A stretch of 64,000 nucleotides of DNA, from IMG/VR virus record IMGVR_UViG_3300045995_000471. One strand, written 5' to 3'. The notes under the pieces were generated by a model. That model worked only from the letters and a program-made list of their open reading frames with translations, was not told where the DNA came from and made no database searches. Origin of the DNA: an uncultured virus (IMG/VR IMGVR_UViG_3300045995_000471). Its lineage: Duplodnaviria > Heunggongvirae > Uroviricota > Caudoviricetes. Positions 53,801-63,940 of this stretch are shown piece by piece. The position numbers and the translations under genes were made by a program. Each line of letters begins with the position of its first letter. Positions within the stretch are counted from its first letter, which is position 1.

Positions 53801-56800
53801 TTTTGCAATAGTTGGCGCCGCTTCCTCTAACATAGCATGTCCTTGTTCATGAGCCATTACATTCATAAAGGCTCGCAGCTCTGCTCTATTTGTTGGAGCA
53901 AATAGTCTTATTGCTCCCTCCTTATATCTACCTTCCCCTGCACCTAGACTATCATCTAGATCTATTTTAGACCCATAAAATTGTCTAGCCTTTGCAGGAT
54001 CTCTTTCTTCCAGTGGTCTTACCTTAGATACTAACCACTGTCCCTTCTGTAAATCCTCACCCTTCGGTTCATACTTGAGAATAGTATAAGTACCGTCAGC
54101 CAGTCCTTTTACACCTTCTAATTTTACCGTCACATATCCTTCTTTTACGCTCTCAATCGTAGCCTTACCAGTGTCAAACGTAGACATACGCCCCGCGCCA
54201 TAAAAACCTTTTGGAATCTCATAGTCACCTTTCTGATAATAATCAATAGCATGGTGTGCAGTAGGCCCTATAGCAAGCCTTCTATCTCCCTGATCCTTAG
54301 GCATAAACTCAGGAACAGCCCATGATTGGAGTTGCCCCCCGATTTCTATCCTCATATCATGGTGTGGTCCCGCTCTCAAAGCATCATGCCTATGCACAAC
54401 AAACCTACCCTCGTCCCCCTCCTTAGCCTCGCCAGGAAACATAAAACCGGTCTCCTTAGAAATAGGAATAGCCTCTGGATATTTAGGTGCTTGTCTTCTG
54501 CTATTTAATACTAGTACAGGATCATAGGGAAGATCAGGCATACCCTTTCCAAATATACTCCTACGTAATTCTTCTTGTGTAGCTACTACTGCATCCTTTG
54601 CGAAAGATGCAATGGGCTCGATACCCGGAGCAGTTACTAGGAATTTTGTTCCCTTCTTAAACTGAGAAGCTTCTTCTGCGGGACGATAGAACTTATCATC
54701 AAGGCCCTTTAGATACTCTTCCATACGGTCTCTAGTAGTTTCTACAACAGGCCAGTCTGCTGGATAAGGACTTCCTGGTGTAAATCCTCGGTCCATTACC
54801 TTTTGATGTTTACCAAGAATACTTGTTTCTGCTGCTTGTTGATCCATCCAAGGCCAACGCATTTCTTCATTAACCAAATAAGGCATAGTTTTTAACTTAG
54901 CCATATCAGGAAAATCTCCCTTCATCCTATTAAGTGATTTGGCTACTACACCCTCTTCTAGGTTTGCAAAGGGTCCTTTTTGTTTGAATATCATATCGGC
55001 AACGTTAGCATCAATAACACCACGATACAATTCTGTGGGAGTCTTTAAGCCTAGATCAGCAGCAAATTTCTTGAACTCATCCACTGGTAAGACTTTACCA
55101 CCGACCTTAGCATCAAACCAAACCAGTGGATCTTTCTGTCCACCCCATTCTCCAAATAGGTCTATTCGTTTTCTATCTTCTTTTACTTTATCTTTGAGAA
55201 GAGGAACTAGCTCCTCATTAACCTGTTCTATGAATGGCCGGTAACGTGCATTAGCCGTCTCAGGATCCAAGGGATGATTCTTTGTGCCATAACCGATTTC
55301 TGTATTGCCCCAACGTAGAGGCGCAGCACTCAATTTAATTTGATGCCCGTGGCTCTTATATTGAGCCGCAGCTTCGTCCCCCAAGAAACCTGGATAATCA
55401 AAAATAGGTTTGATACTAGGATAATCAGCAGGTATAAAGGACCTTATGTTAGCAGGAGCATTAGGACCAAAAGCTTCTCCTGGTGTAAACCTAGGACCAC
55501 CGAAGGCACCACCAGCACCAGGTAATCTACCAGGTAGCCCCTGTAGAGCACGTTCTTCTAAGGTGCCTAAAAATTCTTGTTTTGATCTTTGGAAACGCAT
55601 CGTATAAAAATCAGGAGACTCAGTATCAAGTTCCTTTAATATATTTTCCATACGTTTTTTGAAAACCATATTTATATATCTGGTATAGCCACGATTTTCT
55701 CCGTAAAGCCCCGCCTCAGTCAAAGCCTTTAGTGGATCATCGGCCTTTGCAACTATCTTTTGGGCGCGCTGGTCGAAACTAAAAACCTCAGCCCATTCTG
55801 GCTTGGATAGATCAAACGCCTTATCAAAAATATTTTCTACATCTTCACGTACTTTGTGGGTAGGCTTATTTAATATGTCAGCCAAATCAGTCCCACCAGT
55901 AGCACTAGGACGGAACGGCCACCAAGAAGATTCAGCAGTTTTAGGAATTGCTTTTCCCAGTTTGGACTCAACTTGTCCTAACCGCATGTCTTCCCAACCT
56001 TCTGGGAGGTCTTCACCAAGATGTTCAAACATCTGGCCCATACGTTCTTTTAGTATATTGTTCATATAGTGGGTAACCCCACGGCTGCCTCCATAGAGAC
56101 CTTCAGACCTAAGCCCCCCAATAACATCTCGGTAGTCACCAGCACCAGGAGGCTGTACTCCACGTAGAACAGGATGAGCCATATAGATATCTTTCCAGTC
56201 ATCGGCACTCAACGAACCTGCATGTTTAGAAACAGCTTCTTTCCAACTTTCTTTAAATAGAGGAGAAAATGATTGAGTAATCTCGGGGGACCTACCAACA
56301 ATACCACCTTGTATATCTTCGCGAATATCCCTTCCTCTAGTGGCCCTCCGTAAAGAACGAACATCCATTCCATAACCCATTTCTCCACCCAATAATGACG
56401 CAGTTGCTTCAGTTACCGCTGCTCTTCGGGTTTCAGGGTGCTTTCTAAGTTCGGCTATTATCTCAATATTACTTTTTCCAAACATATCTCCGTGGCCTAT
56501 ATCTTCAAGCCACTGCTTAACTTGTGGTCCAAATTCCTTCATATAAACAAGTCTCTCAATAAGAGAATCAACTTTGAGTCTATATTTGGATTTAGGATCT
56601 GCAACACTATCTATCTCTTCCTTTATCTTATCTATACCAGAATCTTCTCCCATTCCTAAGAGTTTATATGCTGCACCCTGCTGTATCAAACCGTGCGCTT
56701 GGTTCATGGCACTGGTTAATTGTGTTCGATATTTGTCTTTATCTTCAGGTGTTCTGGCTAGAGCAAACTCTCGTAGTGAATCTTCGAATGCTGTCTTAAC

Positions 56801-59800
56801 GCCCTGATCAATAAATATTTGACCAGTAGATTCATCATAGAAAACCTTATTACCAGCCCGCGCATGCTCACCAGCGAGACCTGCTGTTTCTTTTCCATAA
56901 GTCTTTACTTGTTCTAGAAGACCTTCTAGGCGGTATATTTCAGGAGTCATAACACTCATAACTTTGTCATAAGTCTGTTGAAACTCCTCATATATTTTCA
57001 TTGCAGGACTACTAAAGATGTGAGTTTTTTGATCTTCGGGAGACGAAAATGTACCAAACATCTTGCCAACATCAATATGTTGACCTGGTTTGTTTCGAAG
57101 TACATAGTCTAGAACCTCAGCATAAGAAAGAGCGGGTCCCCCAGGAGTATAGATATTCTCTGCATCTGATCTTTTAGCATAAGAGCCAACGGCCATACCG
57201 GCGCCACCAGAAGACTTCAGTTTATACATGGGCTGTAGACCACGATAAAGAGAAGCTGTTGACATGCCTGGTTCAATTATTTCTTCTTCAATTTGTCCAG
57301 GACGTCCACGTCTCACACGCTCAAGTCCCTCACCTGCAGCAGCAATCCTAAAAGCTCCTTCTATCTTGGATAAGTTATTACCCAGTTCCTTTCTTAGCTC
57401 GGTCAGAACCTTATCAGTAATATTCTCTTTACCAGCGTATGCCTCAAAATCACCCTCATTGAATTTAAACTTAGTTTTAAGTCCTAGTGTCTGGAGTGTC
57501 TCATCTTCAAATCCTTCACGGCCCGCCATAAATTTAGCCAGTCCTAAACTACCCTTTTTAGATAGAGTAGCATCACCAACCAAGCCAGACGAATACTGTT
57601 CTTTTATGTTGGCAACTGACAAACGTCGCATCTCGTCATATACTGATTCTAGCATCGCTCTAAAAGAAGTATTTTCTATAATAGCATTAATGATCTCTTC
57701 TCGGTCTTTTCCTTTTACATCTAGGCCATAATCTTCTGCTTCACCCTTTAGTTCTTCATCAGTTTTTGGGCGGAGAAATTTAGTTCTATAGGTGGCTAAC
57801 TGTTTTTCCTTCTCTCCAAATATACCACCATATCCAGTATCGGCTCCTTGGGATAGCTCATCCAATTTACCAGTAAAGAAAGCATTAAGAACCTTAGGAC
57901 TCATATCAGCACCAGCAGATCCATGCTTACCACCAATAACTTTCTGGATAATATCTCTTAAAAATTCCCCCAACAGCACATTATAAGTATCATGCATTTT
58001 AGGAGTAAGTCCCATTCCCTTAGGATCGGCACCACGGTAAAGGAAACCAATCCTATTAAAAGCCTCATAGCCTTGTCCCATATCAATCTTGTGCACAAAA
58101 TGCTTTAGAGAATCTTCTGCAATATCCTCTGCGGCCGTACCGTGTATATCCAATAGATCCTTCTTAGCAGTCTTCTCGACTCCCTTAAGAAAGTCCATTT
58201 CTTCCCATACAGGAGCAGCATGTCTTGCAAGTAGTGCTGGAGGAATCCCCGTTGCTCCGCCACTGAGAGGAGAAATCTCTTCACCTGGTAGGAGCTCAGC
58301 ACCCTTTTTACCTAAGGACCTCTTTTCCTCAGGAGTATAACTCAGTGTCTCATGTAGAAAACGCCTAGCAGTTCCGTAATCTTTGGTCTGCATATCATGG
58401 ATTCTTTTTAATTCTTCATTGGCTTCTTTGGTAGTAGCCGCATGTACCGACATCATGTCGCCGTCGAAGTCCAAAGTCATTGTTGCTTCATGGTACAAGG
58501 GCATTAGATCCTTGGATACCTTATCAATTCCTTCAACATCTTGTTGTAGTTTTGTAATAGACGAAGTAGCCTTTCCTCCACTATCTTCTAGTTCTCTTTC
58601 TATTTGCTCTACCTTCTGCTGTCTTACCTTTTCCAACTGATCTCGGGCCGCTTCCATCTTAGAGACCACAGGATAGTCTCCTATAGGTAAACCGGGCACT
58701 GTTACAACTCCAGACAGGTCCTTCAGCATATCATCAACAGTCAAACGCATGGCCCTGTAACTAAACTCATCTGTGGTAGGCTGTCTATTAATAAGAGCAT
58801 ATATATTATCAGCTTGTTTCTGTATCTCTGGAGTAGCTTGCCCGGCCTTCTGAAGTTCTCTTAGATCTCTTTCACCAATACGAACTTCGTCGCGTCGCAC
58901 CCACTGAGATGGATGTTTAATTTTGAATTCTTCTACATCCCTAAGCGCAGCCCTCAGTTCTTTGACCAGAGTCATTGCTTCGGAGTTCTGCCCACCAAAT
59001 TTCTCTAATTGGCCTATGGCTCTAGTAATAGCATCAGCAGGATCGTATGGTCGTTGTTGTGCGGTTAGATATAAAGCAGGTATCTTTTTCTTCATTACTA
59101 CGTCTGAGATTACACCACGTCCATATATAGAACGTGTTAATTCATCATAGTAAGCCTGAAGATTTCGTCGTATTTCGGCGTACTGTGTATCCGCCGCAGT
59201 CTTATAAGTTATCCCTGTAACCTGCCTATTCTGATCAAGTTGTGGTTCGTACTGTTTAAATTCTCTTACCAATCTCTTTAAGAGTTTATCGTCCATCAAA
59301 CTCTGAGTTTCATATCCAGCATGCCTACCCTCAGATATATCTACATTAACTTCTTTGCCTATCAGTTCCTTATTCTTAGCATAAATAACAGGGTCCGAAA
59401 GAGCATCTCTCAAGAAGCGAGCACGATAATTAAGGTTAGAAACAGAATCATCTAGGGTGCGGAAGTATTTGTCATAAGCATCCCCTATCGTGATACCCTC
59501 TTTCATTTCTCCTTCGAGCTTTCTTTGTTTATCTTCAGGGACTCTAGAATATGCAGTAGGATACCAAGCTTTCTCCGGGTTCTCAGGATCTACCAAGAGA
59601 GATCTATTACCAAAAAATTGCGGCATTTGGCGCTGTCCAATGGACCCTAGGACCTGCTCTTCCATCTTCCCCAACAGTTCTTTCTTCAAGTCAATATCTC
59701 TAACAGGATGAATCTTATTATAGAAGTTACTCAATACGACATCTAAGAAATTCTTTTGTGTTTCTGTAACTTCTGGTTTATTAGATTGAGATAATAACTG

Positions 59801-62800
59801 ATGATATTTTCTAGTGGCTTCCACAGTCTCAGACAAGTATCTAGAAATAGTACTAGGCAAGACTTCCCCGGTCTCAGACACAACCTTCTCCCTAGCCTTT
59901 ATCTCAGGTATTTCGATGAGGCTCTTGGCAGGCATAACCTGGCGGCCTTCTCTAATTCCCTCTTCGATCTCCTTATCTATTTGAGCCTGCATAGCCTCTG
60001 AGGGCTTAGGTAGCTGTAGTGCCATACGTGGACCATATTTAAATGGATCAAATATAGTACTTCCTAATTCCCCTACTGTTGCCTTGCGCTCTAGCGGGAC
60101 CACAAAGTTCTTAGAATCCTCATCAAGAAGTTCTCGTTCCCCAATAGATTTTAGGTTACCACGAGACGCAGCACGTCTAAGTTCATCTTCACCTAACTTA
60201 GCAAAAGACCTAAAGGCTGAAAGAAGAGCACCAGCTTCTCGGGCTTCTGGCACAGCTCGGGTTGTGAACTCCTTCATCAGGGCGCCACCAGGTTCAAAAA
60301 GTTTCTGTAGCCCGAGCCAGCCATGCGGATCCACCGTCATCTTAGACTCTCCAGACTCTAACTGGGAAGCACCTTTGGCTAACCAAGTCTTAGGTTCTTT
60401 CATGATCATTATATGCATCATTCCAGCAATAGCCTTTTCTACCTGGCCATCTTGTTGATACACAAATTCTTCACCATACTTCCCTCTTAGCCCTAAAGCA
60501 TCTTTATATAGAGTAGCCAGTTCTTTAGCATCACGGCCCGACGCAGTATTTTCTACTAGGATTTTAGCAAGAGGAGATCTACCTATTTGCTCAACTAGAG
60601 TTTCACCTTCTAGTGGTTTACCACGAAGGTTTCCTATGATGTTATTGGCTATTATCTCAGCCATATTTCCACCAATCATACGGCTAGCCTTACCTACGCC
60701 TGTAGCATGAATACGTAAATCGGCTGGTGCATCTTTAAGCAATTCACCACCCATGTCCTTGTAGGCCTGTCTTATCTGGTTCATATCTTGTTCTAAAAGC
60801 TTAACTTGTTCTTGTGGAGATGTTGCTTTCTTAAGTTGTTCCGGAGTAGTAAAACTAAAGCCCAATAATTTACCTATAATTTGGCGACGCTCATCTACAC
60901 CTAGCGTATCTTCACCCATAATCTTTCCAGTACCATACTCGATGGGACTCATCTTAAAACCTTTTAGATGTTCCCCAGCCATCATAATAACATTCTGGGT
61001 ACCTTTAATCATATCAAGGGCCTTTGCTACTTCTGCTGGATTGAGATCTTTACGGGCTTTAAGAAGATCAGTCAAGATTTCTTCAAAGGCTTTAGGTGCA
61101 TCTTTTATAGTGCCTACATCAGTAAACTGTATTTTGGGAAATAGGCCTTGCTTAGCTTTTGCCGCCGCAGAAGCTTCAGCTTCCGGACCACCAAGTCTGC
61201 CGAATACGGTAGCACTAACGCCTTTCATGACCTGACCAGTAGATAATTTGCGAGCTTCATGACCAAGATAAGCATTTAGTAATTCAACAATATTTTCTTC
61301 AATGGGACCTTTGGGAGACTGCGCCCAACGCTTGGCTATATTAGTAACGAAGGTTTGGTCAGCAAGTTCCTGAGATTTGATAGGAGCCCCAAAGATATCA
61401 TGACCAACATCCTGTAGATACTGAACCACACTGTTTCTGAGTTCAGTTTCAGTGCCCTTTAGATTAGGTACAACCATCTTTTTGAATTTAAAGGTAGCAA
61501 CCTCTTGTAGACGCTTACCCATTTCATAGAGATCTTCATAACCTGCCGATAAGTCTTTCAGGATTGTAGTTACATTAAGGCCTGTACCATAAGGTCCCCA
61601 CTCGCCCTTCGAGATCATTTGGTGTGCTTTTCTAGATCGTATAGCATTGAATTCTGGACCGGCTAGAGAATCCCACGCAGCACCAGTTGGGCGGGCAGGA
61701 TTTATAGAATATCCAAAAGCCTCAGTCTCGCGGGGATCATAAGAAGAAAATGGTTGTAGTCTCTTACCTTTAAAGAAGGCTTCCATAAACTGTTCACCGA
61801 AGTCTCGTTTACCAGATGCAGCCGCCTCATTCAAGCCTACAGTTGCCAACCGTTCTATGGTTGGGCCTAATTTCTTAGCCGCTGCCTCTACACCCCTTAA
61901 CAATTCTTTCTGATATAATTCCTCCATATCTAGGTTGCGTTGAATAATGAAACGTCTTAAGGCTTGGAGATCTACAGGTACACCAAAAGAACTAGGCCCT
62001 GCATCTACTCCTGGGATCTTGGGCTGTATAGTAATAACTTTACTGCGCCCGTAGACCTCATGCTTTTGCATAGCCTCGTGTTCTTCTGGAACTTTTTCTT
62101 TAATAGGATCAAATACGCGTTTAAAACTCTGAACTAACAATTCATTAAAGAAAGACTCATTACCAAGTCTACCGGCAGAAGACAGGCTATTTCTGATTCT
62201 CTCCAATTCATTAGTTTGATCTTTTGAAAAAGTAGCCGCACGGTTAAGAAGACTGTAAAAATCTATATTTCTATACTTACTAAACTCTTCTAGAACTCTC
62301 TGCCAAGCTCTCACATTATAGTCACTTTGACCAAAGATCTCTCGCTCCTTTTGTTCTAGGCGTTTAATCACATTTTCTAATTGACCAACAGGAATATCAG
62401 CAGCTCTAGTTCCAGACTTTTCAGACTCTGCCCTCATATACCCAACAACAGGAGCAGGTATTAATTCATATCTAGCACCTTTCCCCTTTAAAGCATCAAG
62501 CTGGGATCTAAATCTTGCTTCTAATTCAGGAGGAAGTTTACGACCACCGCTTATTATTTCTTCTTTTAATACACGTTCTTCAGTAGTACGTATAGCCTCT
62601 CTAAGTGCTGTCTCATAAGTAGACATAAAGTCTTGCTTCATTAGGTTAATGGCTTCAGTAGCCTTACGAGCTCGACCGCCTCTGGTTTCTTGCAAGAAGG
62701 TATTAACTTTATCAAAAGAATCTTTCATTTTCTGGATTGATTCCTCAGCAGCCGCCTCCATACCTACACCAACACCATGTTCCTCGGCAGGCCTGGATCT

Positions 62801-63940
62801 AACCCAAAAGTCTTTAACTAAACGTCGGATCTCCTTGACCTCTTTAGGCACATCTTGGGGACGATAATTCATCTTCTTGATGTAGTCAGACATTTCTCGG
62901 ATATATGTATCATCCATATAATTAATACCAGGCTTAGTTTCCAGATATTTTCCTAAAGTCAGATATTCTCCACGTTCAGGATCTCGTATTATACTTGCTC
63001 CACGTGCACTCTTCGCAACAGAAGGTAGCGGAATAACTTGCTGGGTAACGCTCTCAATCTGCTTGGCAATCATCTCGGTCTGTTTCTTAGCCGCTGCTTC
63101 TCCAAGCTTAGAAACCAATTCTTTTTCAACGATCTGAAGTATATCTTCCTGAGTTTTTTGGATATATTTTAATGACTGAGACATTAAAGTCTCTAGCTTT
63201 CGGGATATATTATTTTGCTCTAGGTATCTGTTTATCTCATCAGCTACGGATTTACTAATGTCTACCTTGAAAGCATCACGGAAACTCTTAGGATCCATGA
63301 GTTTTTGTGTCTCTTTTGCCAAGGCTTTTACATCAGACATTGCATATGTAGCAAGTCCATTTTGATCAAACTGAATGTGGGGAGCACCAACATACCTTCC
63401 ACCAATAGGAGCACCAATACCACGCCGGGCACTCATAGATGCCACGTCCCTAAATAGATCTGTAGGCGGATCGAAGAATTGTGCTTTACCAAATTGGAAT
63501 ACTATGTTTCTTTGGAATTGTGCAAAAGAGCGCCTAGTCTTATCTAGTTCTTCTCCAAGTTCCTTTCCTAAAACTTCTGAGGCTTCTGTTACAGCCTTAC
63601 GCATCTCTTGGACTTGGTTTAATAGATCTTTACTTTTTATGGCTTGCATAGCTTCCGTAGCTACTTTTGCATTATCCCCAGCCTCAGTAATGCGATCTAA
63701 TTCTCTTTTAATCTTCTCAACTTCAGTTGCCGCTGTCTTGTGCTCAGAATAACCTACTTGTGATAAGGCAGTCTGTATAGAACCATATACCTCATCCATA
63801 TAATCCTTAGCTCTCATAACGCCCTTGAGAACGTCCTCTTTGGATGCATCCACTAATTTCTCAATCTTTAATTCTAGTTCCCTAGTAAATATATCTGGAG
63901 CTGTCATCTGTTGTAGAGAACGTTCGGGACGTAATTCCAT
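26900..63940 (-). CDS. Giant tape-measure polyprotein (>=12,346 aa) with fused two-barrel RNA polymerase, RNA-ligase-like, LigD phosphoesterase, RNase HI and zincin domains
   Basis: Single uninterrupted ORF; domain motifs are listed as separate features. The frame has no stop between 63941 and 64000 (QQFIKNLKSPTTVSTFTGER), so the true start may lie outside the window, although a GGAG precedes the ATG at 63940. Confidence 0.9.
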   Translation of the reverse strand: MELRPERSLQQMTAPDIFTRELELKIEKLVDASKEDVLKGVMRAKDYMDEVYGSIQTALSQVGYSEHKTAATEVEKIKRELDRITEAGDNAKVATEAMQAIKSKDLLNQVQEMRKAVTEASEVLGKELGEELDKTRRSFAQFQRNIVFQFGKAQFFDPPTDLFRDVASMSARRGIGAPIGGRYVGAPHIQFDQNGLATYAMSDVKALAKETQKLMDPKSFRDAFKVDISKSVADEINRYLEQNNISRKLETLMSQSLKYIQKTQEDILQIVEKELVSKLGEAAAKKQTEMIAKQIESVTQQVIPLPSVAKSARGASIIRDPERGEYLTLGKYLETKPGINYMDDTYIREMSDYIKKMNYRPQDVPKEVKEIRRLVKDFWVRSRPAEEHGVGVGMEAAAEESIQKMKDSFDKVNTFLQETRGGRARKATEAINLMKQDFMSTYETALREAIRTTEERVLKEEIISGGRKLPPELEARFRSQLDALKGKGARYELIPAPVVGYMRAESEKSGTRAADIPVGQLENVIKRLEQKEREIFGQSDYNVRAWQRVLEEFSKYRNIDFYSLLNRAATFSKDQTNELERIRNSLSSAGRLGNESFFNELLVQSFKRVFDPIKEKVPEEHEAMQKHEVYGRSKVITIQPKIPGVDAGPSSFGVPVDLQALRRFIIQRNLDMEELYQKELLRGVEAAAKKLGPTIERLATVGLNEAAASGKRDFGEQFMEAFFKGKRLQPFSSYDPRETEAFGYSINPARPTGAAWDSLAGPEFNAIRSRKAHQMISKGEWGPYGTGLNVTTILKDLSAGYEDLYEMGKRLQEVATFKFKKMVVPNLKGTETELRNSVVQYLQDVGHDIFGAPIKSQELADQTFVTNIAKRWAQSPKGPIEENIVELLNAYLGHEARKLSTGQVMKGVSATVFGRLGGPEAEASAAAKAKQGLFPKIQFTDVGTIKDAPKAFEEILTDLLKARKDLNPAEVAKALDMIKGTQNVIMMAGEHLKGFKMSPIEYGTGKIMGEDTLGVDERRQIIGKLLGFSFTTPEQLKKATSPQEQVKLLEQDMNQIRQAYKDMGGELLKDAPADLRIHATGVGKASRMIGGNMAEIIANNIIGNLRGKPLEGETLVEQIGRSPLAKILVENTASGRDAKELATLYKDALGLRGKYGEEFVYQQDGQVEKAIAGMMHIMIMKEPKTWLAKGASQLESGESKMTVDPHGWLGLQKLFEPGGALMKEFTTRAVPEAREAGALLSAFRSFAKLGEDELRRAASRGNLKSIGERELLDEDSKNFVVPLERKATVGELGSTIFDPFKYGPRMALQLPKPSEAMQAQIDKEIEEGIREGRQVMPAKSLIEIPEIKAREKVVSETGEVLPSTISRYLSETVEATRKYHQLLSQSNKPEVTETQKNFLDVVLSNFYNKIHPVRDIDLKKELLGKMEEQVLGSIGQRQMPQFFGNRSLLVDPENPEKAWYPTAYSRVPEDKQRKLEGEMKEGITIGDAYDKYFRTLDDSVSNLNYRARFLRDALSDPVIYAKNKELIGKEVNVDISEGRHAGYETQSLMDDKLLKRLVREFKQYEPQLDQNRQVTGITYKTAADTQYAEIRRNLQAYYDELTRSIYGRGVISDVVMKKKIPALYLTAQQRPYDPADAITRAIGQLEKFGGQNSEAMTLVKELRAALRDVEEFKIKHPSQWVRRDEVRIGERDLRELQKAGQATPEIQKQADNIYALINRQPTTDEFSYRAMRLTVDDMLKDLSGVVTVPGLPIGDYPVVSKMEAARDQLEKVRQQKVEQIERELEDSGGKATSSITKLQQDVEGIDKVSKDLMPLYHEATMTLDFDGDMMSVHAATTKEANEELKRIHDMQTKDYGTARRFLHETLSYTPEEKRSLGKKGAELLPGEEISPLSGGATGIPPALLARHAAPVWEEMDFLKGVEKTAKKDLLDIHGTAAEDIAEDSLKHFVHKIDMGQGYEAFNRIGFLYRGADPKGMGLTPKMHDTYNVLLGEFLRDIIQKVIGGKHGSAGADMSPKVLNAFFTGKLDELSQGADTGYGGIFGEKEKQLATYRTKFLRPKTDEELKGEAEDYGLDVKGKDREEIINAIIENTSFRAMLESVYDEMRRLSVANIKEQYSSGLVGDATLSKKGSLGLAKFMAGREGFEDETLQTLGLKTKFKFNEGDFEAYAGKENITDKVLTELRKELGNNLSKIEGAFRIAAAGEGLERVRRGRPGQIEEEIIEPGMSTASLYRGLQPMYKLKSSGGAGMAVGSYAKRSDAENIYTPGGPALSYAEVLDYVLRNKPGQHIDVGKMFGTFSSPEDQKTHIFSSPAMKIYEEFQQTYDKVMSVMTPEIYRLEGLLEQVKTYGKETAGLAGEHARAGNKVFYDESTGQIFIDQGVKTAFEDSLREFALARTPEDKDKYRTQLTSAMNQAHGLIQQGAAYKLLGMGEDSGIDKIKEEIDSVADPKSKYRLKVDSLIERLVYMKEFGPQVKQWLEDIGHGDMFGKSNIEIIAELRKHPETRRAAVTEATASLLGGEMGYGMDVRSLRRATRGRDIREDIQGGIVGRSPEITQSFSPLFKESWKEAVSKHAGSLSADDWKDIYMAHPVLRGVQPPGAGDYRDVIGGLRSEGLYGGSRGVTHYMNNILKERMGQMFEHLGEDLPEGWEDMRLGQVESKLGKAIPKTAESSWWPFRPSATGGTDLADILNKPTHKVREDVENIFDKAFDLSKPEWAEVFSFDQRAQKIVAKADDPLKALTEAGLYGENRGYTRYINMVFKKRMENILKELDTESPDFYTMRFQRSKQEFLGTLEERALQGLPGRLPGAGGAFGGPRFTPGEAFGPNAPANIRSFIPADYPSIKPIFDYPGFLGDEAAAQYKSHGHQIKLSAAPLRWGNTEIGYGTKNHPLDPETANARYRPFIEQVNEELVPLLKDKVKEDRKRIDLFGEWGGQKDPLVWFDAKVGGKVLPVDEFKKFAADLGLKTPTELYRGVIDANVADMIFKQKGPFANLEEGVVAKSLNRMKGDFPDMAKLKTMPYLVNEEMRWPWMDQQAAETSILGKHQKVMDRGFTPGSPYPADWPVVETTRDRMEEYLKGLDDKFYRPAEEASQFKKGTKFLVTAPGIEPIASFAKDAVVATQEELRRSIFGKGMPDLPYDPVLVLNSRRQAPKYPEAIPISKETGFMFPGEAKEGDEGRFVVHRHDALRAGPHHDMRIEIGGQLQSWAVPEFMPKDQGDRRLAIGPTAHHAIDYYQKGDYEIPKGFYGAGRMSTFDTGKATIESVKEGYVTVKLEGVKGLADGTYTILKYEPKGEDLQKGQWLVSKVRPLEERDPAKARQFYGSKIDLDDSLGAGEGRYKEGAIRLFAPTNRAELRAFMNVMAHEQGHAMLEEAAPTIAKDIMAGQELTGIDTKKLRTYFMQNYGGDGGDDEDAAAHALEEKLAGGLKTDEDQEILDELTKIQDLVGEKAGRENIGTSPQTELAFMRKQLSSYGPGQQPYTLMVDAGARGNPGPAGAGSVLLNPKGQTISESNKYLGDLTSMAAEYQGLVMGLQNALMHSAQNLKVKSDSEVMVGQMRNEFKVKNEQIKELKAQADALSSKFDSINFQYVPREQNKQADRLANIAMNRGMGRGTTVDELLKTNAITVDAGPFRDRNLVPERSMGYLNQGFAVGMGGGGKIYMPPETIKAYQEASGKQKQSYADAIMKTYQHEKTHLDINAAPGNVLNKYRQQAVQGEAANLASSFIKEAIGSTSHDVYKAQFDDAQRRAGEKPGDYTKSPAARWEAMQELIAGHPEMQTGRDPRVAQIRSNFYKDLGPTRAGSPVWQDVDSLRKQKLEWGTEARSTMYPRSAEISLGIPPILDAITGLNVNDAIKAAVHPGMRERRFLGKPQRMLEDYDPYLLGLLRKGTKAGSMVGLQASLGRAPFKLEMADPLQLGSYALQEETLPRMEDLLKIRPLKEEERPTDYVGMHPASERGLSQALTQNLRALLAGRMTGSGPMGVGGGIFSTIWRDVIANPLKRKPAVPAPSLSEALWANVKGGSQLAWGGLKFGVQAPLAVARLPYDAAVSAKNMEQILSDLASEQIGGAKAGIGELGSFKTIPALGSEAARVRGAGSMGPAQIEHLIEIEKQGLKRMLEYNLPGAIPFTGTELGGSAFASMTDFNAARQGAVTQPSAQRINAAARQKLLWETIIGEGAQTPPASQRFIRGISAAGTGIGETAQYKIPEAASFMSEAFSGLGAGLAALGKGSYMTPTGAIQNTQMGPAIWSSLRGILPGRDATGTTLGEEFRHQMGTIYNLGQSDLAKNMTNYRAGFQPFGPESLEPVERQLGHAMGRIGGMGLGGLAHRPGLLANAGLAARGLITQPLYTVGETMGEVGHALGSGNLMEAGRGILGGAVRILPAVGHMVAGYHEAKEEIAQGASPTLAITGSIGEQLISATTMGLGAAMGARVATPAATALRSMGGGGPKAATAVRILGAILGSIGGGIVGGHIGDKFQSGYWGMFGQEAPGNRRNQAWQEAKNRKELEEAGLDKILPDYVPPERMEQVESNKLWMGRGGMLGGALLGMRTGSGGGRSLLGGVLGAMGGLWLGHKAGDWGKDREREKARAMYYAEQSPLLGDELSAFAPGSDRLSEQMPWKIPPEIKGMVGSGVKGKPLSQILDTFGALQSEITPSSGGTLTSQKGILRKVSEIYLTHLQGLQSELDRAAKGGNTDLVAKISKDIDEYLIKYVINVTRTSVGGGVHPLSDPYKVGRAGGFMGSEDSKNLTLGRPQSFDEVVNVDTFLNRGLEGMAKKAVTTMRDLSDTGVSPRTVYQETMSGLMKSSTNLPKDVASIHSYLRSSVHELGKQPDADIQQYTYWKALEEQFRGPTRQLRGSGRFSGDSRAAAPVTPRGLSMEDQELGMQKTIEYYKQSLGVDTKAKVGDIIPLKFDLTDEAGRVLKSIRADLIKVGEAAGQVKVEYTDMGKVMAEKNTLFGAVQLTSHFMLAGALVGGGVLELKNMLGTIADVETGLMNVKKVMEPATTDFGKMQTEAIHMAKTYGTSIREVLDAMVIFGQQGLSQAKVLDMTRESTMAGAVMNLKAAEVTEYLTAATKHYGATIKDSSQYLDSWIRVDVKHAITAANLAQAMLKVGNAAKMTGINFHELNGIVTAIGSVTRQTGMEVGTALRFIIRNIETVNIRNKLRDLLKIETVLPTGSLKPGMQVLTEIKDKWDDMADSEQFYLGQSIAGARHYNAFLTLMDNFKEAQVAAKESTDAHGDAEIRMALQMDTLERKVKTFRATLGELSVDLGKFALEPAKSFVDLGSSIVAAFTLIPDNIKKGIVALSAFAAYASTIETVMSGVQRFGVSTGIAPALTSFGKMAASPISSIREAASSVVGIKSMDQAETTLGKMMYLVLSLGRGFNSTVGSMGGSIGTFTILLGGATAALSLLGGADQSLLPLAGTLAGIGIAMKIIGFSLGSLSGAGTGLAGSLLPIASVGALIYSNWDKLSEVFSSTESRIASLTKAQTQFGSVRSQIAQIEDVETKYTEAQTLQKGLEKQQIKLSTPEGRQAEAERMLLNAGRTAAYTSPYDKLQKYQEAIDNALRDSVRIIPQLASGYDAFGNAIMKSGTIAKDMLSVLKEQLTTIRDMERGQLIKIHLEGLFPADTWAHQLKGMLRSVLEGVPGAGEQWAARVVPRSPYEQQQHILGQLSTLGGLGQEVAPGGGPVPVMLNVRMKKLHAQLEQVNATLDVSMKKIDEQIKSFSTESPAEFMAKIATPDYDKFFQVKGGRDMGAMRQAARSMGVPLEEFQAMTVGQKPAQYADLWKSQQYFSKADNLAKLLGIPEESDMASLLKTYQPSVSNIAGDLSAIVNAAGKTIMQWYGTLIVGAADAITTAQDINSIIKNSLSDVSTDRLGTAVSSIASNIYNGIAGAISDPGSIKESLGRGLASARVSYNNVLSQGNIYTAPLDYTRLAEIQLGSRPEQGTTVFGPRGFTPANNPIRNAQAAITGLLGGTEGRSEFDQMLDAETGNIYRLITGKELAPEKERYPFGKPGLWGQAKIALGIGTGQLPPVMEPLGAAGKKSPVVPAVVTEAQRYPFGKPGLWDQIKLGLGIGVGELPSVLTLPRPEEELYPFGKPPKGTNIPKGELPPVLEMPQTEMSQLRARWTVFGKTLFTGAGANYAKMAELSGRATLEPVQQDLVRELTGPDQIDKLREYMKARSVITPGGFNEEALSKLINRISPFIGAGPAPEPVIPARAGTAGAWVSANVQAPVQDAYTKIAQSVAEALNYISPTIVPKIKEVTDFAASLVGKDLREGLVATATWIKDSADTIKKQQGALQLGRTPANEEAMVRLMQVTRYRTMLDKIGLSSEAVEGGLIGAIGTTPSAALAMKAVGQPGYWAATGATGTVGIEEVKKLIEETGQTLITKEALELGKDFAGVQLSPEFMAQRNIPSHQQYIPISMERHEGRVQAMLSYQQGQEQQMTKMPLAQLSKEDLLGAASKTGLALDFDTEFEKIKRRMGRGAGWNIATFQGAEKLHTGVDFRFEVAGHDKAINALFNMARSIHDIDVQMDNLAKSGAWDKSLTKVQEMEHLLTQKRQLDFLLKVREDFENLQNSIDKMNFDLWMHKAEEASQIMRRQARGGLDALIELPMKMPSMMRSFSELNPEERIAAFNPNYAPVARQASFAEAQLDNYFSGQGQLSKTNMKSQMMFEDLKQQIGPALTGLDEKFMNKLMKDLATSPEDRATEAVRDNILKAQLVYMEKMYQETREMNKNFSAQSTKELTKEYTKIQTQVEDKLKAAEKAKQAGDTTGAAKLESDAKGMLEVLNQKGFALRARGNEPLQRFMSPELMSEALSGFEERTGSNVKDFQKKWGGMGTEFNLDTGLKGLISSINGLWVTPSGDARSMDLAERRRSLLPGAAGGYSPALVERQANFIQSDTLRANEQAIRFGDRYASSEMLKLGNKPVQGSVMLDYMRAQFKEAGIEKYPEYRQDRKQAEESRRLGQLAHGARQELPPEPSRYFKVAQGMIGAYLGSMFGEKLFGGDMTKAQNAGNDLMKSLLDTTKWEREVMLNQSDWLRQIAHNTSQTGGRGGPGQGQAFSPIMPARTMFIRHGAALAGDAASGIGPLGIMAMAGAGLFIATQLLHRTDFTQASRAGSWLTQTISPTRTPTYMNMQVWDSFMHDLHREIGDGIARPVGRAMSVMQEVAPAVRYASATTLYRSGGMDLGVPMLNVPGQMQHLDRLDRAGGMSRAIGTILAPLDRVDRFIVRFVNHPWTQTAMGAVGYVPPPGGSQLQNWNIASRFTDMPQNITRYMREITRMFDTTRSGMLITDFSSISRFSRWTRTLLDGFNHLPMAIPASQLQALSAFEQTFLTITHAMGRFSGNMAPVARGAAKWGTVGAVASMLPFAPLSMPVMAGLGAMAGGGLLSGRAGLWGGVIGSLLGMPLGRSIMGGLGVGAAGRLTGITGIGDLLMQVPQLRYIVESWRHAGGPEYGVVGQRLPWRMGTGGRALGAGVGIASLATGGGFLLPAIATTLGTRAVRGIFARDYTGDTLYQQRVGEVMSHLEGRMEPTAASRWFSPMRRMALGGAAGYGAAALGLVGMGALPAVALGMGAGLLGGRLMRGSQQANLRRQAIDIVRMQSGVAPEIRMFENTPWYSRLINFPRVLAGGDVAGGNLRAAYQHQEYLKSMGVGAGETGVDSFRRNIRDLSMESVANEYVNNFALGRARMLRFPETEQQQIRQRARDIAQQPRRTPTSPLAQTIPMEEIVRIQGEIEGATNLIGSRSRGEGIGWTMRRQVRNALVGRMVGERMEQHPTDFRNNPTLRRIERADIQNQIDRGTMPVTNMMVGEQLYRMPEPQIRRAVERSYGPITPGSRAEATYNRVIQYRQTRLQDEQQLGVQRVAIGGGISAQGTGGGLGRIIGGTGPLVDNRSEAMIEATRRMSRDMEHIERLQGVRREFARIPKMTEAEALTFMGGTVDKSLVPAGARANVSTRQDLLEHYFKQAGGDVGNLPKVAIDRVDALLQGTLEHVDNRIASANRRLMGHGEVPGTAEMAGAREQVANMMAVEKRISARRERGEFIETSPGLTNDLQLRRLYNEQINQATGQQLGYRTVGNAGIRVKEINDEIDRLRKSTEGYRTVLDQLKIDTSGTIRSWRDLKNVPAEVEKEFQRFGGPRQSEGVMHQRVGAAETEASTLERVLRGEADITRTGFGLEWLAPLMEKLDGQINLLRESLLRGQAVPAEIFRNLSSTITQSPLGTTKAAENYQGMLRELELSVRTGAFTYHQPLGQLTQNLRSEMGLGTGGTLTKLETFFTETLKEARTPQGMTDVQFVERAHAWRLENLGTAVTRATTTFEELITKVATSGRSLGDLGQRIEGVGIALRELGSGAGGYTGAAMRAGGAHLGGGGIFGILAATVGGEYAMGKMHDMGMPMAAAVGLPIAATALIGSMMGGGGPRKGFAAGWEGTKEMFGPWGKNMLFPHLMSLKEFEGEGINTGSGVSRALGLTLPKALKDSNLAWAKSVEGGAGEGLLANMVRAGGIQKSAATGLRTVGKASMWLAPVLEGYFAYEDMQSTLEAHPEVGKGTAAVGAGAKASTNLARMLIFSGLGAAAGIALAPFTGGGSLLPLILSGLSGAGAGLFDESLMGPGGTGGRISDMITGVNSRDRDINLKPKEGEAAQALGAFSPAARRNQLFRKASEDLERLRSTSEVTLPMAAMKSLMPLLGATGMLSISSQFNERADQEVFKERVVRQSKSLQELLGSGQIKTKKDLETTELGRYMSTTQMAPIVESLEKIKDIQKDHPSVLSIDYLKNTILSRVKQGIVGIEGEKGSLAQVLSDIPNQTPGQQIDTLRQAMAGTIAKQIEDPEELKRKQDSYNALRENILAMHLETTRHITMATALEKSIAAADSLTTTMKAFAPMAGIGAGVGGTEMERFKGIKEMAPYNIMQIMQPELYQHYQEGTTQYKSLQGDADTIKKDREAAIVNRGMAFATLEHQTKLFTDANKAAAAEGKGPVIPKEQMAQYENFIALNRKMSLMTPEQRTEFEKTTGARETLSGLAKSLADWGKKRQGEFTTMGLPGAGLTIGGKEIPANLKMNDVGVSTLTAVQETIESHLKLLTTGKTPKGTYFNTEFDLSKMTAEEKEKHIASARGSLDILAKIGQEKGIYSPLANIEAVQAEINKGNVTVYSQNELFDKIGEKIKGIRDTYKEVLSLGQAWADISKLSLITIQGELKVIEARNAYMSQMPGSGLPGPGALAQMYTGNTPVLAGKYVMPEGLMPKSSTEWGVGEWMAQTPGGSKVAKEYTILNKELEARKSVANEYATTLNSITSQGQAASGLSKELSQFQGPAAKFDISGIAGQAMAAKMDIFVEQQKKELPGREKALAPLAEQRDLLQDDWEMKHAEWKEKKAILDKTLPGMVPSISPGVVKEAETKATEAAKARDAANATAKTAETLVEGTKRNIEQIPVRMAKAKAGDPQALEEMIKDLNELAVVADTVAKDPRTRQMGENAAAAIKEQMTKIGDYIGQHAGEMAAAAVQKFMNRINIEYQTAINMIPAKFTASAAQNVTGLTAGVAMPTEIRLGPQTRMELSVQQRYAKYYPGEYQQAATQQMTLDARIARLNKVNEDLASVQAKRKYEQNPYLIPMQEAQIAALTKERDALTGAVQENTAAIRAAEDRMWKIKIDADIEKMLTDMASGLQRISLNFRFPWRDIFQPVAGYIGELPKAPIRVEDYSAGQLMAKYVPDVYQTGKQLETYNETTKGAREKLLGEASSAKGQEIYARAVGDNETADKMAQRYSVLMEALSNLDRAWEEEQNKLSDTAKAVLKMNEAMEVFRDGLQTLKQGIHNLASSMAQGWVEGIKNQAGLMAGVPQYKWTAPKIFESDLSPHDIVNMYAPGTAATVANYQAAKEAVTGTAVKYRTAYNEAQIRYETEPENRTPADKKIIEFYARATGAAEDGLKRLAAAARPWEETIAKMEKLGELAKKFAELEVALEKLHRTNWGLDYREYDTEMGKNMWSRQNPRMEQVGNQNIVIPGGNFYTPTTYNTRPEYGTDPLTGRPYELPDYRQEGTKYSQERKLLEEQRKAGVIGPQEYKLRRQKQDWQVEEDETKYLQDRENQKMEKQKGIAVQMRDSIVEMQIRGKDFGLGEKLDDVRKNIEEDLKHAGDVTGREGATGLLTRRGFENMDQMGKMSDVIKDMIRAMDTGADTDAGKIYMPIVMELKALRLALTGDLSALNLTTKEWGMLLKGGEFGAGAQASYFDKLIETGGNDAEAVAAVRGMIGDIKPKALEAAAEGGGYRSILSGKQAAAQEEQLDMAKTEALNRLSKRDALSWTGISAGQGVETNTPDARGDTDVYKAQVTGWMKNVGATNDPWNLIGKNKLTPDTLKEAFGSAESPTLLGKGIFGKLTPFTPAEEAEWLTGLKKEAKPKEGEGEGTTPYEGFEYNNAMRNMQMATSHGIRSGQGREMWRAINYQPAMDIKQERQWLGGLGAEQGTEMRELMAKADASGVQSAAGREMVRALNIGVKEQIQNLKDLFAKYMGPLLECLCQGSKPAETGGVAGVIGPTQTGVAPREPAQTGVVPDRTFRPFDTGVVPTPQTPATQDYPAVITPSKGPTRSGIPKDYLSSLKEMHNKYSGEEEEEAEEPASLSKNVIRWAKNAYSKYHPFLNYAGSTLADAGALYNGIDIGNEPATVLRQAASQIDPRQVALWLRSKIQSIRPEPEISGPDTGSPELELSAAEAPAWESKITKGPFDIHELYKGETKAGQVSYRTGEKPAFHSFSVSPELSQRDRITTGFKLLEGFKEQMGPQLDEARILTPLKPQTVPIMERVAQRMEKEAPNFAKRIRDVVEESKSRYADMFTETDFMTKDPFQHILDQTGELKKTGLKGLENTFGFTPEEAARTASEPLSEKTATMVKDIMWPEARKEITAPGIFTNPSLTRQQIRGMFSERPTIEVPVSNMGGRRRIGIFPPEEISKMTGHSAANTRGFHIPQIGSIGINPEAPDPFSEVIHELGHPKLDKLFTEMDPEMEDAVRGLLKERYEPTRLATQERIPEYKKLSPAEVHIEQFLKDTQNYVPAGEKGGALQRIQERLQLDAEKIRPQFEELLERSKNVPVRPKDMNVGASERLPIDLSAEALPSTEELVNANRARYEGRGVEPATLPSTEELIDANRAKYEGRGNAQAVVEAVESPSQGGIRAREAVGSRTYEALNQEIDLERIIKPEDYGLKPGGEIITPGPQPRPGAKITIPGETPPGGPPGGPIVLTDDYKFRPSDAGIVPEAAGVTGIPKRGLGMRALRGVGALTAEFAPWMFHGPAIAGTAEAMAGPMITENVEAKKLWGQLSPTGGGLSKIGEGLNTPLVGGVSVADVGKAGLKVVETAFGAIEAPFNYMYKKATGDQANTFTEVMTEGVKQIATGLLSGPAQLMTGYNPRLNEDQVIQAKKDMYDQARPSTGVLSSIQNGIVKWGLEAVNRVSYAGDKTRLEGMMAVAPEQQMSQEQYKAYQEAQGKLKEGIDRKDLSETLRDALKKGDDIQEKLLREVASGKGPWKEGERFDTTGLEAAAQRRLGPQPTLETSGPSIMPGTLTGLNRVALAAFNPSPELTLEAGPQSVETFPGLETSPVGRGESLRTMKQDFASDLRDTGQGKLGVERGFADAPSYHMGRVLQKEFGHGIFSRARMQEQKHNIEAERENYERIRQEMVEEDKPAKADRERRALAEQMYAESQILPETNQLPYTVQLPSGVRTERGGPPPVRPRPESRGIVREYDPDYEPGDRGAVQDWTRRGRMEAGLTDTYAQQKDSLPKQGFTYQPVPAGAMDLFGGLTRKEVELKKGLMRGTLPAPTSDSVRQYLDAKQQDAQAGPGLGSVLQQLRKSGMSKEYIDKVREEMQSGNIAGGLQPGQKFNVKDLANQYQIKYYEDKYGEGSAQAMGERNRIAGQYGREATGIANQATGMGYTWQEVAGGNAGNYSERYREVANKSWETSEPNKYDKNNPYYVATSQEDYYQTKHGQQAAYDIETAAFEKHPEDVDARNKYIEEQKAAGYQTVRDKESDRDRADLNKGAKELAQNDPNWKKANAAYDAAAQAKNTPGISDEEWKRQDEIQKQSVGTMVDIEQKNKKYLNREPGGVRSTQDMTSTNTGVAPQTVDTTPRQAVPTVDTTPQTTQAPVDTTGQTPTYPQTQPGADTGRTDNAALQASLDGLPAAIGAAVASALADKLGGGEGGDNSKAVADAISNALTGALLNVNVVGEVQLAGGGLSALINQELKALNLEPELQKQMKADLDLAQNAIDEIKTKAGLEDEGGKISQLVAEVTRLDTNIQGALAAIDEMGRKLDITAEKARDTGNQPQNSIVTTPPIPA
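27445..27560 (-). repeat. Thr/Pro-rich VDTT linker repeats near the C-terminus of the giant ORF
   Basis: QTVDTTPRQAVPTVDTTPQTTQAPVDTTGQTP. Confidence 0.7.
30440..30575 (-). repeat. 72-bp (24-aa) tandem duplication inside the giant ORF
   Basis: ttcttcggtagaaggaagtg occurs at 30482 and 30554; LPSTEELVNANRARYEGRG / LPSTEELIDANRAKYEGRG. Confidence 0.9.
30770..31090 (-). other. Zincin-like metallopeptidase motif 3 (HELGH at 30935-30949)
   Basis: TRGFHIPQIGSIGINP...SEVIHELGHP...EVHIEQF. Confidence 0.65.
45575..45905 (-). repeat. Three diverged protein repeats YPFGKP...G(E/Q)LP(P/S)V inside the giant ORF
   Basis: YPFGKPGLWGQAKIALGIGTGQLPPVM / YPFGKPGLWDQIKLGLGIGVGELPSVL / YPFGKPPKGTNIPKGELPPVL. 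Confidence 0.85.
48100..49090 (-). other. TP901-family phage tail tape-measure core domain
   Basis: VETGLMNVKKVM...AIHMAKTYGTSIREVLDAMVIFGQQG...LTAATKHYG...LDSW...ITAANLAQAMLKVGNAAKMTGINFHELNGIVTAIGSVTRQTGMEVGTALRFI...QSIAGARHYNAFLTLMDNF...GDAE...MDTLERKV, followed by hydrophobic helices (47530-48100). Confidence 0.9.
52620..53010 (-). other. Zincin-like metallopeptidase motif 2 (HEKTH at 52856-52870)
   Basis: GFAVG...GKIYM...IMKTYQHEKTHL...EAMQELIA. Confidence 0.5.
53115..53505 (-). other. RNase HI domain inside the giant ORF
   Basis: YTLMVDAGARGNPGPAGAG...TSMAAEYQGL...KVKSDSEVMVGQM...YVPREQNKQADRLANIAM; all four acidic catalytic residues (D, E, D, D) are present. Confidence 0.92.
53660..53940 (-). 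other. Zincin-like metallopeptidase motif 1 (HEQGH at 53837-53851)
   Basis: GRYKEGAIRLF...FMNVMAHEQGHAML...ALEEKLA: G-x-Y strand, HExxH helix and a downstream EE. Confidence 0.6.
54020..54410 (-). other. LigD-type 3'-phosphoesterase (PE) domain inside the giant ORF
   Basis: RFVVHRHDALRAGPHHDMRIEIGGQLQSWAVP...RRLAI...HAIDY...IPKGFYGAGRMSTFDTG...QWLVSK matches the LigD PE consensus, including H, H-x-D-x-R and H-xxx-Y catalytic residues. Confidence 0.9.
54870..55420 (-). other. ATP-dependent ligase/nucleotidyltransferase domain (Rnl2-like) inside the giant ORF
   Basis: Motif I QYKSHGHQ (KxHG, Lys codon at 55355-55357), III LFGEWGG, IIIa VWFDAKV, LGLKTPTELYRG, IV EEGVVAK, V MAKLKT, in canonical order. 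Confidence 0.75.
57900..59150 (-). other. RNA polymerase beta'-like catalytic barrel with DFDGD metal-binding motif inside the giant ORF
   Basis: YGRGVISDVVMKKKIP (cf. GKQGRFRQNLLGKRVD); YALINRQPTTDEFSYRAM (cf. VLLNRAPTLHRLGIQAF; NRQPT at 58775-58789); TLDFDGDMMSVHAATTKEANEELKRI (cf. [26 protein letters not shown]; DFDGD at 58457-58471, aa 1824-1828). Confidence 0.9.
60300..61620 (-). other. RNA polymerase beta-like catalytic barrel region inside the giant ORF
   Basis: GLNVTTILKDLSAGYEDLYEMGKRL (cf. beta GQN...GYNFEDSI; GYED at 61532-61543); RKLSTGQVMKGVS (cf. GDKMAGRHGNKGVIS, same K-x7-K spacing; 61220-61249); PADLRIHATGVGKASRMIGGN (cf. PDIILNPLGVPSRMNIGQ; SRM at 60677-60685); AIAGMMHIMIMKEP (cf. 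VTVGYMYMLKL). All are in the correct order. Confidence 0.8.

Follow-up and report, generated by a model that had tools for sequence, protein, structure and literature searches.

Why should one reading frame of an uncultured tailed phage carry the catalytic motifs of both large subunits of cellular RNA polymerase (RNAP), first those of the β type and then those of the β′ type, ahead of a tail tape measure domain? The question is raised by a 64,000-nucleotide stretch of viral DNA (IMG/VR record IMGVR_UViG_3300045995_000471, Caudoviricetes), which was analysed at its full length and is referred to here as the window. Its minus strand holds, at 26900..63940, a single unbroken open reading frame (ORF) of 12,346 amino acids (aa) that runs from an ATG at 63940 to a TAA stop codon, makes up 58% of the window and, by ORF call and domain scans, encodes a giant tape measure protein (TMP) with an enzymatic front part. 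Within this protein, aa ~760–2010 are likely to form a single-chain two-barrel RNAP with a β-then-β′ layout, which would be part of the TMP, be delivered together with the DNA and transcribe the first genes. That the module is a polymerase we regard as highly probable, because catalytic motifs occur in order and invariantly across very distant clades, because a clamp is predicted between them, and because there is a precedent in gp96 of the Thermus phage P23-45, a 5,002-aa TMP in which an active virion two-barrel RNAP makes up the first ~1,100 residues (Chaban et al. 2024, PMC10770324; PDB 8H2M, 8H2N).

A first-pass annotation had placed a highly diverged polymerase at 57900..61620, which corresponds to aa 775–2013 of the 12,346-aa ORF, and all of the motifs that it named are found at the residues claimed (GYED 800, K898-x7-K906, SRM 1086, GMMHIMIMK 1173, NRQPT 1718 and DFDGD 1824). 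The β-like block spans aa 757–1220 (60281..61672, on the minus strand, as are all features of the window described below; alignments A5/A8) and comprises the candidate second double-psi β-barrel (DPBB-B) with its flanks. Here, GYED (aa 800–803, 61532..61543) is the counterpart of β GYNFEDS, as indicated by an hhalign match to NFEDSiLiSERVV with an E-value of 0.022. KLSTGQVMKGV (aa 898–908, 61217..61249) follows, in which the two lysines of K898-x7-K906-G-V, both conserved in 15/15 sequences, are the counterparts of E. coli β K1065 and K1073, situated eight residues apart in DKMAGRHGNKGV; the corresponding hhalign match of fgRKiTTRygsKGV with GDKMAGRHGNKGV has an E-value of 0.12–0.13 and is non-significant on its own. 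Further along, PADLRIHATGVGKASRMIGGNMAE (aa 1072–1095, 60656..60727), which includes SRM at 1086, is the counterpart of the β PxD...SRM...LE element (hhalign E 0.41–0.52), and GMMHIMIMK (aa 1173–1181, 60398..60424) resembles β VGYMYMLKL, a likeness read by eye from the alignments and unscored, with VGxKFxQIxEEP as its counterpart in a distant clade of relatives.

The β′-like catalytic block occupies aa 1712–1840 (58421..58807, alignments A6/A7), represents the candidate DPBB-A and is interrupted by a helical insert of ~70 aa. In the alignment, NRQPT (aa 1718–1722, 58775..58789) is the counterpart of β′ NRAPT, and DFDGD (aa 1824–1828, 58457..58471) is identified by alignment and profiles as the candidate metal-binding loop; as first noted, the asparagine of NADFDGD is replaced, with TL rather than NA preceding DFDGD. 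The E. coli rpoB and rpoC products carry the counterparts GYNFEDSILVSE, PGDK1065MAGRHGNK1073GV and NADFDGDQMAVHV. Thus, β-type and then β′-type motifs do occur in one chain and retain all three aspartates and both lysines, residues that are invariant in 18/18 and 15/15 aligned family members, respectively. Beyond the catalytic block, FVHKIDMGQGYEAFNRIG ... LLGEFLRDIIQKVIGGKHGS (aa 1948–2010, 57911..58099) displays a K, G, E and then an E..LR.....K(H) pattern, invariant or nearly so over both clades, from which we tentatively infer a candidate bridge helix and trigger loop; the structural model described below has a predicted local distance difference test (pLDDT) score under 50 in this part, at model residues 1075–1200. 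Given the composition of the ORF itself, D[FY]DGD is expected 0.008 times by chance in 12,346 aa, and the ordered chain [FY]ED / K-x7-KG[VI] / RxPxT / D[FY]DGD is jointly expected ~2.5e-8 times and is contained in 0/2000 protein shuffles.

The relatives of the module are few and fall into two clades. A HMMER pass over 1.84 billion representative proteins returned six matches, five of them fragments with 56–62% identity and one with 25%, and word-indexed searches added a few more. The close kin of the window are three IMG/VR contigs of 545, 256 and 211 kb (CheckV completeness 100, 97 and 86%), with stop-free frames of 14,712, 12,316 and 13,617 codons, respectively, and 50–64% identity to the window; the two longest frames (G001 and G003, 14,712 and 13,617 codons) are 61–64% identical to it, with at most 64% for the polymerase part. 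Over the first 3,700 residues, identity between the close kin and the window ranges from 40 to 80% and peaks at aa 600–900. The best-conserved section of the first 5,600 aa is aa 600–800, with a mean identity to the relatives L001 and L002 of 74–81% (aa 601–800). In the N-terminal region (aa 1–756, 61673..63940), Pfam finds no match at E<=0.1 and no family is recognised. All three close relatives carry the β-like and β′-like blocks once each, inside the giant ORF.

A search with the β′-block profile revealed the second, distant clade, which comprises nine further viral loci and 13 metagenome loci that are not all independent, since L010 is on the contig of L003, L022 is on the contig of L015 and four viral loci are identical in the compared part. 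Over the whole module, the distant clade is 17–21% identical to the window (alignment A4, 22 sequences), and the frame is open across the whole 12-kb locus in nearly all members. The motifs of this clade keep the order and spacing of those in the window and read [NT]FEDQ[IV][ILV][IV][SA]G, ~115 residues, K.[TV]TR[FY]G[SA]KGV, 890–1,080 residues and LD[FY]DGD, such that the β-type motifs are more canonical here than in the window. Each strict motif pattern is in place in 14 of 19 loci; among the exceptions, L026 has KGL, L015/L022 have both β-type motifs ahead of an in-frame TAG, and L028 lacks FED. Across both clades, G..G..G.G.N, the ED of [FY]ED, RK..T....KG, PK and GK..R....E....N are invariant in 15/15 sequences (A5/A8); in the β′-like block (A6/A7), R.P.T...S and LD.DGD with the following H are invariant in 18/18, PG and LD[FY]DGD.I..H.A are invariant or nearly so, and the same holds for K..G...E and E..R...K(H) 3′ of the catalytic block. 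The first-pass suggestion of an uncharacterised lineage is borne out, with no named relative found and every source name reading 'hypothetical protein'. Searches by tblastn with the window module and a distant-clade member against 50,697 phage records, and also against 72,556 plasmids, gave no match.

We also note that in L015 (a 55-kb contig, shared with L022) the giant RNAP-TMP frame is broken by two in-frame TAG codons, at 4276–4278 and 5293–5295, with the β-type motifs ahead of them and DFDGD behind, an arrangement that suggests TAG recoding or read-through in this phage.

Profile comparisons connect the β′-like block to cellular RNAP at its catalytic loop. Pfam RNA_pol_Rpb1_2 is matched at E<=1 by 14 of 22 members, with a best E-value of 1.1e-4 (23.0 bits), and the A6 profile retrieves dozens of β′/Rpb1/A′ chains from the PDB at E 0.013–0.4. 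Similarly, hhalign of the β′ block against 77 bacterial β′ sequences gives E 3.5e-4 (probability 37.5%, 22 columns), and blastp aligns it to rpoC 449–481 with E 0.003. When the β-like block is compared by hhalign with a profile of 80 bacterial β sequences, three of the four top-ranking local matches are collinear and correspond to FED (E 0.022), K-x7-K (E 0.12) and PxD..G..SRM..LE (E 0.52).

An AlphaFold model of aa 780–1979, built from a 10-sequence alignment, reaches high confidence only in the stretch that separates the two motif blocks (model residues 590–820, pLDDT 79–93), within a clamp-like region predicted at aa ~1215–1617 (59090..60298). In the wide VIA-align search, the clamp is matched in 4 of 50 rows (Z 7.0–7.8, root-mean-square deviation (rmsd) 2.9–4.7). 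The best match is the archaeal clamp 3qqc_A (Z 7.8, rmsd 2.9 Å over 131 residues), with Pol II Rpb1, plastid β′ and Pol I chains also matching the region at Z 7.0–7.3; model residues 436–838 additionally align to the N-terminal clamp of β′/Rpb1/A′ in 6byu_D (Z 7.5, rmsd 3.7, 120 aa). In a second structural comparison, 14 of 50 rows are β′-type chains (Z 5.4–7.7), including those of the AR9 and phiKZ phage non-virion RNAPs, and these align to β′ residues ~7–350, some of them to ~493–500, past NADFDGD. The region between the blocks is thus predicted to fold like a β′ clamp, and the middling Z scores make this a support rather than a proof. A β′ clamp located between the β-like and the β′-like block is what a β–β′ fusion predicts.

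The chain in which this module resides extends 10,300 residues beyond the motif stretch, and it is here that the first-pass annotation, sound for the motifs, was incomplete, having overlooked these residues together with the TMP identity, the RNA ligase, phosphoesterase and RNase H domains and the published precedent of a TMP-fused RNAP. A TP901-type tape measure domain is located at aa 4977–5317 (47990..49012; TIGR01760, E 1.1e-38), where PhageMin_Tail of Pfam (aa 5014–5204, E 4.5e-21) and PHROG 4211 (aa 4964–5512, E 4.8e-57) also match. Seven Gly/Ala-rich hydrophobic segments, detected by a Kyte-Doolittle scan (19-aa window above 1.6), lie at aa 4452, 5396, 5420, 7093, 7565, 8406 and 8576 and span aa 4452–8597 (38150..50587). 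The next gene starts 15 nucleotides (nt) after the stop codon of the giant ORF and is preceded by AGGAGG. An ORF located downstream matches a PHROG tail protein (E 7.4e-8); the genes just upstream of the giant ORF fall outside the window. Judged by its domain matches, its hydrophobic segments and this tail gene block, the giant ORF is a tail tape measure protein. The last 6,800 residues of the giant ORF returned no family match, PDB relative or internal repeat.

The association is shared by the distant clade, since PhageMin_Tail lies downstream in the same frame in 11 of 12 distant relatives (ten above the Pfam cut-off and one partial at the end of its locus), and the frame of the twelfth leaves its contig before the PhageMin_Tail region. 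Thus, fusion of the polymerase-like module to the tape measure is common to the whole group, and the earlier idea of a virion enzyme is strengthened by the finding that the module belongs to a TMP. The same annotation had pointed to the lack of visible sigma and alpha genes in the window, an observation of little weight, as a single ORF fills 58% of the window. The virus records of the three close relatives (86–100% complete) likewise gave no match to Rpb2_6, Sigma70_r2 or sheath (PF04984), which is weak evidence.

The window protein carries three further enzyme domains, all of them C-terminal of the polymerase module and ahead of the tape measure domain. The first is an RNA ligase domain (PF09414; aa 2858–3016, 54893..55369; E 1.2e-7 and 6e-8, above cut-off), in which KSHG, EGVVAK and KLKT, which we take to be ligase motifs I, IV and V, are kept in three of three sequences (the window and its relatives). 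A LigD-type 3′-phosphoesterase domain follows at aa 3183–3286 (54083..54394; Pfam LigD_N E 2.6e-16, TIGR02777 E 7.4e-21, PDB 3p43_A E 2.9e-18), and an RNase H domain at aa 3480–3604 (53129..53503; Pfam RVT_3 E 3.3e-24, RNase_H E 6.1e-7, PDB 3hst_B E 1.3e-25). Two HExxH motifs, HEQGH at aa 3364 (53837..53851) and HEKTH at aa 3691 (52856..52870), together spanning 52856..53851, flank the RNase H domain and are candidate metallopeptidase sites.

Just C-terminal of the polymerase module, a SAP-domain match at aa 2060–2089 (57674..57763; E 0.015, 15.3 bits, under the cut-off) may reflect a DNA-binding helix pair. A close relative that is binned as candidate division GN15 is represented by the partial protein P0008, in which the polymerase module and the RNA ligase are separated by an additional PolyA_pol-type nucleotidyltransferase head domain (aa 2098–2238, E 2.5e-21). 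Pfam detects no such domain in the window protein; the enzyme cassette therefore varies among the relatives.

These domains bear on whether transcription is the main task of the polymerase. RNA ligase, LigD_N and RNase H families act on RNA ends or RNA:DNA hybrids, and in bacterial LigD the polymerase adds ribonucleotides, the phosphoesterase trims and the ligase seals. A real two-barrel polymerase could accordingly be imagined to work chiefly with its neighbours on RNA:DNA junctions of the entering genome, in ribonucleotide-primed nick sealing or the joining of genome ends, and this proposal is consistent with the location of all three domains directly C-terminal of the polymerase in the same chain, with their 56–76% identity in the relatives and with the nucleotidyltransferase that one relative adds. 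We consider it improbable. The ligase, phosphoesterase and RNase H are limited to the clade of the window, and the frames of the distant clade list only PhageMin_Tail among Pfam domains, so that the RNAP-TMP fusion exists without them and the polymerase does not depend on them; moreover, the sole characterised TMP-fused RNAP transcribes pre-early genes (PMC10770324).

Is the module a polymerase at all, or do the motifs belong to a part of the TMP that is structural or has another enzymatic role, its likeness to RNAP being only motif-deep? Several results weigh against the polymerase reading. The significant profile match is confined to ~22 columns at DFDGD, and the Rpb1_2 matches are all under the Pfam cut-off (23.0 bits for the window block versus 25.3). 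On the β side, each of the profile matches is non-significant (E 0.022–0.52, probability <=2%), Pfam Rpb2 families are absent from all 22 members searched and the β-block profile A5 retrieves no RNAP from the PDB. Mismatched hhalign controls (β block versus β′, β′ block versus β) score similarly, with junk matches at E 0.02–0.19, and the ESM Atlas gave weak leads only for the β′ block (0.76–0.77) and none for the β block. Among the distant relatives, L031 lacks FED and L017 lacks both β motifs by the strict pattern. The structural model has a mean pLDDT of 58 and a predicted template-modelling score (pTM) of 0.40, falls under pLDDT 50 at K898–K906 and at DFDGD, and displays neither barrel; a Foldseek comparison of the model with PDB and BFVD yields no match at E<=0.001, and neither Foldseek nor VIA-align matches a barrel in this low-confidence model. 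In addition, the clamp Z scores are all under 8, a range that the tool calls common, and helical bundles matching the insert (model residues 847–1043) rank higher. Searches of the PDB with phmmer and with the A1 profile of the module returned nothing relevant.

Nevertheless, a non-polymerase role appears quite improbable, as it would leave five motifs in cellular order, a chain unexpected by chance, with catalytic residues invariant across clades that are 17–21% identical, and a clamp-like fold between the motif blocks at the very place of the β′ clamp. Indeed, gp96 demonstrates that such silence at the sequence level is compatible with activity, since DFDGD was the only clue by which its RNAP was recognised, no other similarity to known RNAPs being detectable (PMC10770324). 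The remaining alternative concerns how the enzyme is released rather than what it is. That the ORF is a polyprotein, whose front enzymes are cut off at the HExxH sites or by a head protease and act free, packaged or not, with the polymerase uncoupled from the TMP, is highly unlikely. In its favour, the two motifs are kept between enzyme part and TMP domain in three of three close relatives (the window, L001 and L002); against it, family scans of the giant ORF recognise no peptidase family there, TMP peptidase domains are usually taken as acting on the host wall, and cleavage would leave the polymerase reading unchanged. P23-45 gp96, a point in favour of such cleavage, likewise has a metallopeptidase domain (PMC10770324).

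For the preferred reading, a virion RNAP that transcribes the first genes, we suggest the following course. The module would be arranged as the β-like block with its FED loop and two lysines, then the β′-type clamp and then the β′ catalytic block with RxPxT and DFDGD. In long-tailed phages, the TMP lies inside the tail tube and, when infection takes place, is expelled into the envelope of the cell and forms a conduit for the DNA (PMC10770324). Because it is part of the TMP, the RNAP would be assembled within the tail tube and exit the virion together with the DNA or before it. Most likely, it would arrive at the cytoplasmic side along with the first DNA and transcribe the leading genes independently of the host RNAP, as for P23-45 gp96, and the RNA ligase, 3′-phosphoesterase and RNase H would probably enter in the same way. 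This scheme builds on the motifs with their order and invariance, on the TMP identity of the chain, on the clamp-like predicted fold and on the recurrence of the fusion in many uncultured phages; to these it adds, by inference, the folding of the barrels, catalytic activity, virion presence, template and timing. A wider role can be envisaged, in which the clamp-bearing RNAP, the Rnl2-type ligase, the LigD-type 3′-phosphoesterase and the RNase H act as a delivered toolkit on RNA:DNA junctions at the end of the entering genome; beyond transcription alone, this could serve ribonucleotide-primed sealing or end-joining of a 200–500 kb genome or the repair of RNAs cut by host defences, and we regard it as doubtful. 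Should the ~8,600 residues that follow the enzymes set the length as they do in other phages, a tail of well over a micrometre would result.

The surroundings of the giant ORF are as follows. All long ORFs in the window are encoded by the minus strand, the genes being co-oriented, and GGAG is positioned 7–10 nt 5′ of the ATG of the giant ORF. Scans for promoters and terminators at its 3′ junction returned shuffle-level signals only, neither internal protein repeats nor tandem DNA repeats were found, and no tRNAs or Rfam families were detected. Copies of the stretch with at least 99% identity occur in contigs from several riverine metagenome runs, and no RNA run is listed as carrying it. Contigs from three other riverine runs cover 18–23 of 30 bins of 44001–64000 without differences; being short (200–1,200 bases), they do not prove the continuity of the ORF. 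In one Logan contig of the riverine run X3, position 57954 connects back to 55822 through 10 foreign letters, a junction that could reflect either a variant or an artefact of the assembly graph.

A second giant ORF (5223..17633) encodes 4,136 aa and has a proprotein-convertase P-domain (aa 2030–2117, E 2e-8) as its sole match; neither PHROG nor the PDB yields a relative, and a role as a fibre or in host recognition is conceivable. The small genes situated downstream of the tape measure include two paralogues of LAGLIDADG-type homing endonucleases, at 20522..21352 and 22448..23266 (PHROG 4645, E 1.4e-42 and 1.4e-41; Pfam LAGLIDADG_3). In the 545-kb relative, two LAGLIDADG-type genes are located immediately upstream of the giant ORF (L001 3921..5063 and 5127..6032).

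How, then, does the module compare with known RNAPs? With the cellular β and β′ subunits (E. coli rpoB and rpoC), it shares the order and the wording of the motifs FED, K-x7-KGV, PxD...SRM...LE, RxPT and DFDGDxMxVH, as well as a predicted clamp-like domain at the place of the β′ N-terminal clamp. It differs from them in being one chain rather than two subunits, in a similarity that stays at the level of motifs, with no Pfam Rpb2 or Rpb1 match above the cut-off, in having TLDFDGD instead of NADFDGD and in the ~70-aa helical insert between VPG and DFDGD; moreover, no alpha, omega or sigma partners are evident in the records of the relatives.

[quoted passage not shown] In contrast to the window protein, however, it is not a TMP, its loop reads DFDID, and its comparison with the module gives hhalign E-values of 0.54–0.68 at unrelated places and a best blastp E-value of 0.32. 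Phages of the crAss-like group have short tails. The possibility that the module is a crAss-like virion RNAP was rejected, since the chain contains a TMP domain and no similarity was found.

The closest parallel is therefore found in organisation, not in sequence, with gp96 of P23-45, of which homologues exist in P74-26, G20c and TSP4 (PMC10770324). Both proteins carry the polymerase N-terminal of the tape measure in one chain, use a DFDGD metal loop, have almost no sequence likeness to known RNAPs and contain hydrophobic segments and a metallopeptidase-type motif further along the chain; a virion enzyme for the first genes is shown for gp96 and suggested for the window protein. According to the published proposal, gp96 transcribes pre-early genes at the TMP pore during DNA entry, after which gp64, a second, non-virion paralogue, takes over (PMC10770324). 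No second, non-virion paralogue was found in the records of the three close relatives, although a cryptic gp64-like polymerase would escape such searches.

The differences from gp96 are several. Neither gp96 nor gp64 has detectable homology with the window module, with hhalign aligning 15 columns at DFDGD (E 0.017–0.045) and blastp nothing relevant. The window module starts ~760 residues into the protein, which places DFDGD at 1824 compared with 779 in gp96, and ~640 residues, predicted to include a β′-type clamp, separate its motif blocks, whereas the gp96 RNAP is flat and clamp-less (PMC10770324). The spacing from RxP to DFDGD in the window, 102 residues, lies just beyond the 20–100 motif filter of Supplementary Data 4 of that work. 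In addition, the chain is 2.5 times longer than gp96 and adds the RNA ligase, the 3′-phosphoesterase and the RNase H, and the close relatives are found on contigs of 211–545 kb. The literature searched contained no report of a TMP-fused RNAP other than P23-45 gp96 and none of such giant enzyme-bearing TMPs, and passages of PMC12619734 and PMC7824862 on related matters mention no TMP-fused RNAP.

Taken together, the window appears to represent an independent, clamp-bearing and enzyme-loaded lineage of TMP-fused virion RNAP, the principle of which is already known from gp96, rather than a categorically new system. The solution seen in gp96, which had looked like a peculiarity of a few Thermus phages, would thus recur in a lineage that shares only DFDGD with it and has motifs nearer to those of cellular β and β′. 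The RNAP-TMP fusion extends over two deep clades and dozens of uncultured phage contigs of 10–545 kb, including huge phages whose sole recognisable RNAP is the TMP-fused module. If the reading holds, TMP-coupled transcription would be a general strategy among long-tailed phages, and the question arises of what role RNA ligase, 3′-phosphoesterase and RNase H play at DNA entry. The module would then also provide a clamp-bearing counterpart to the clamp-less gp96 for studying how a polymerase passes through the tail tube.

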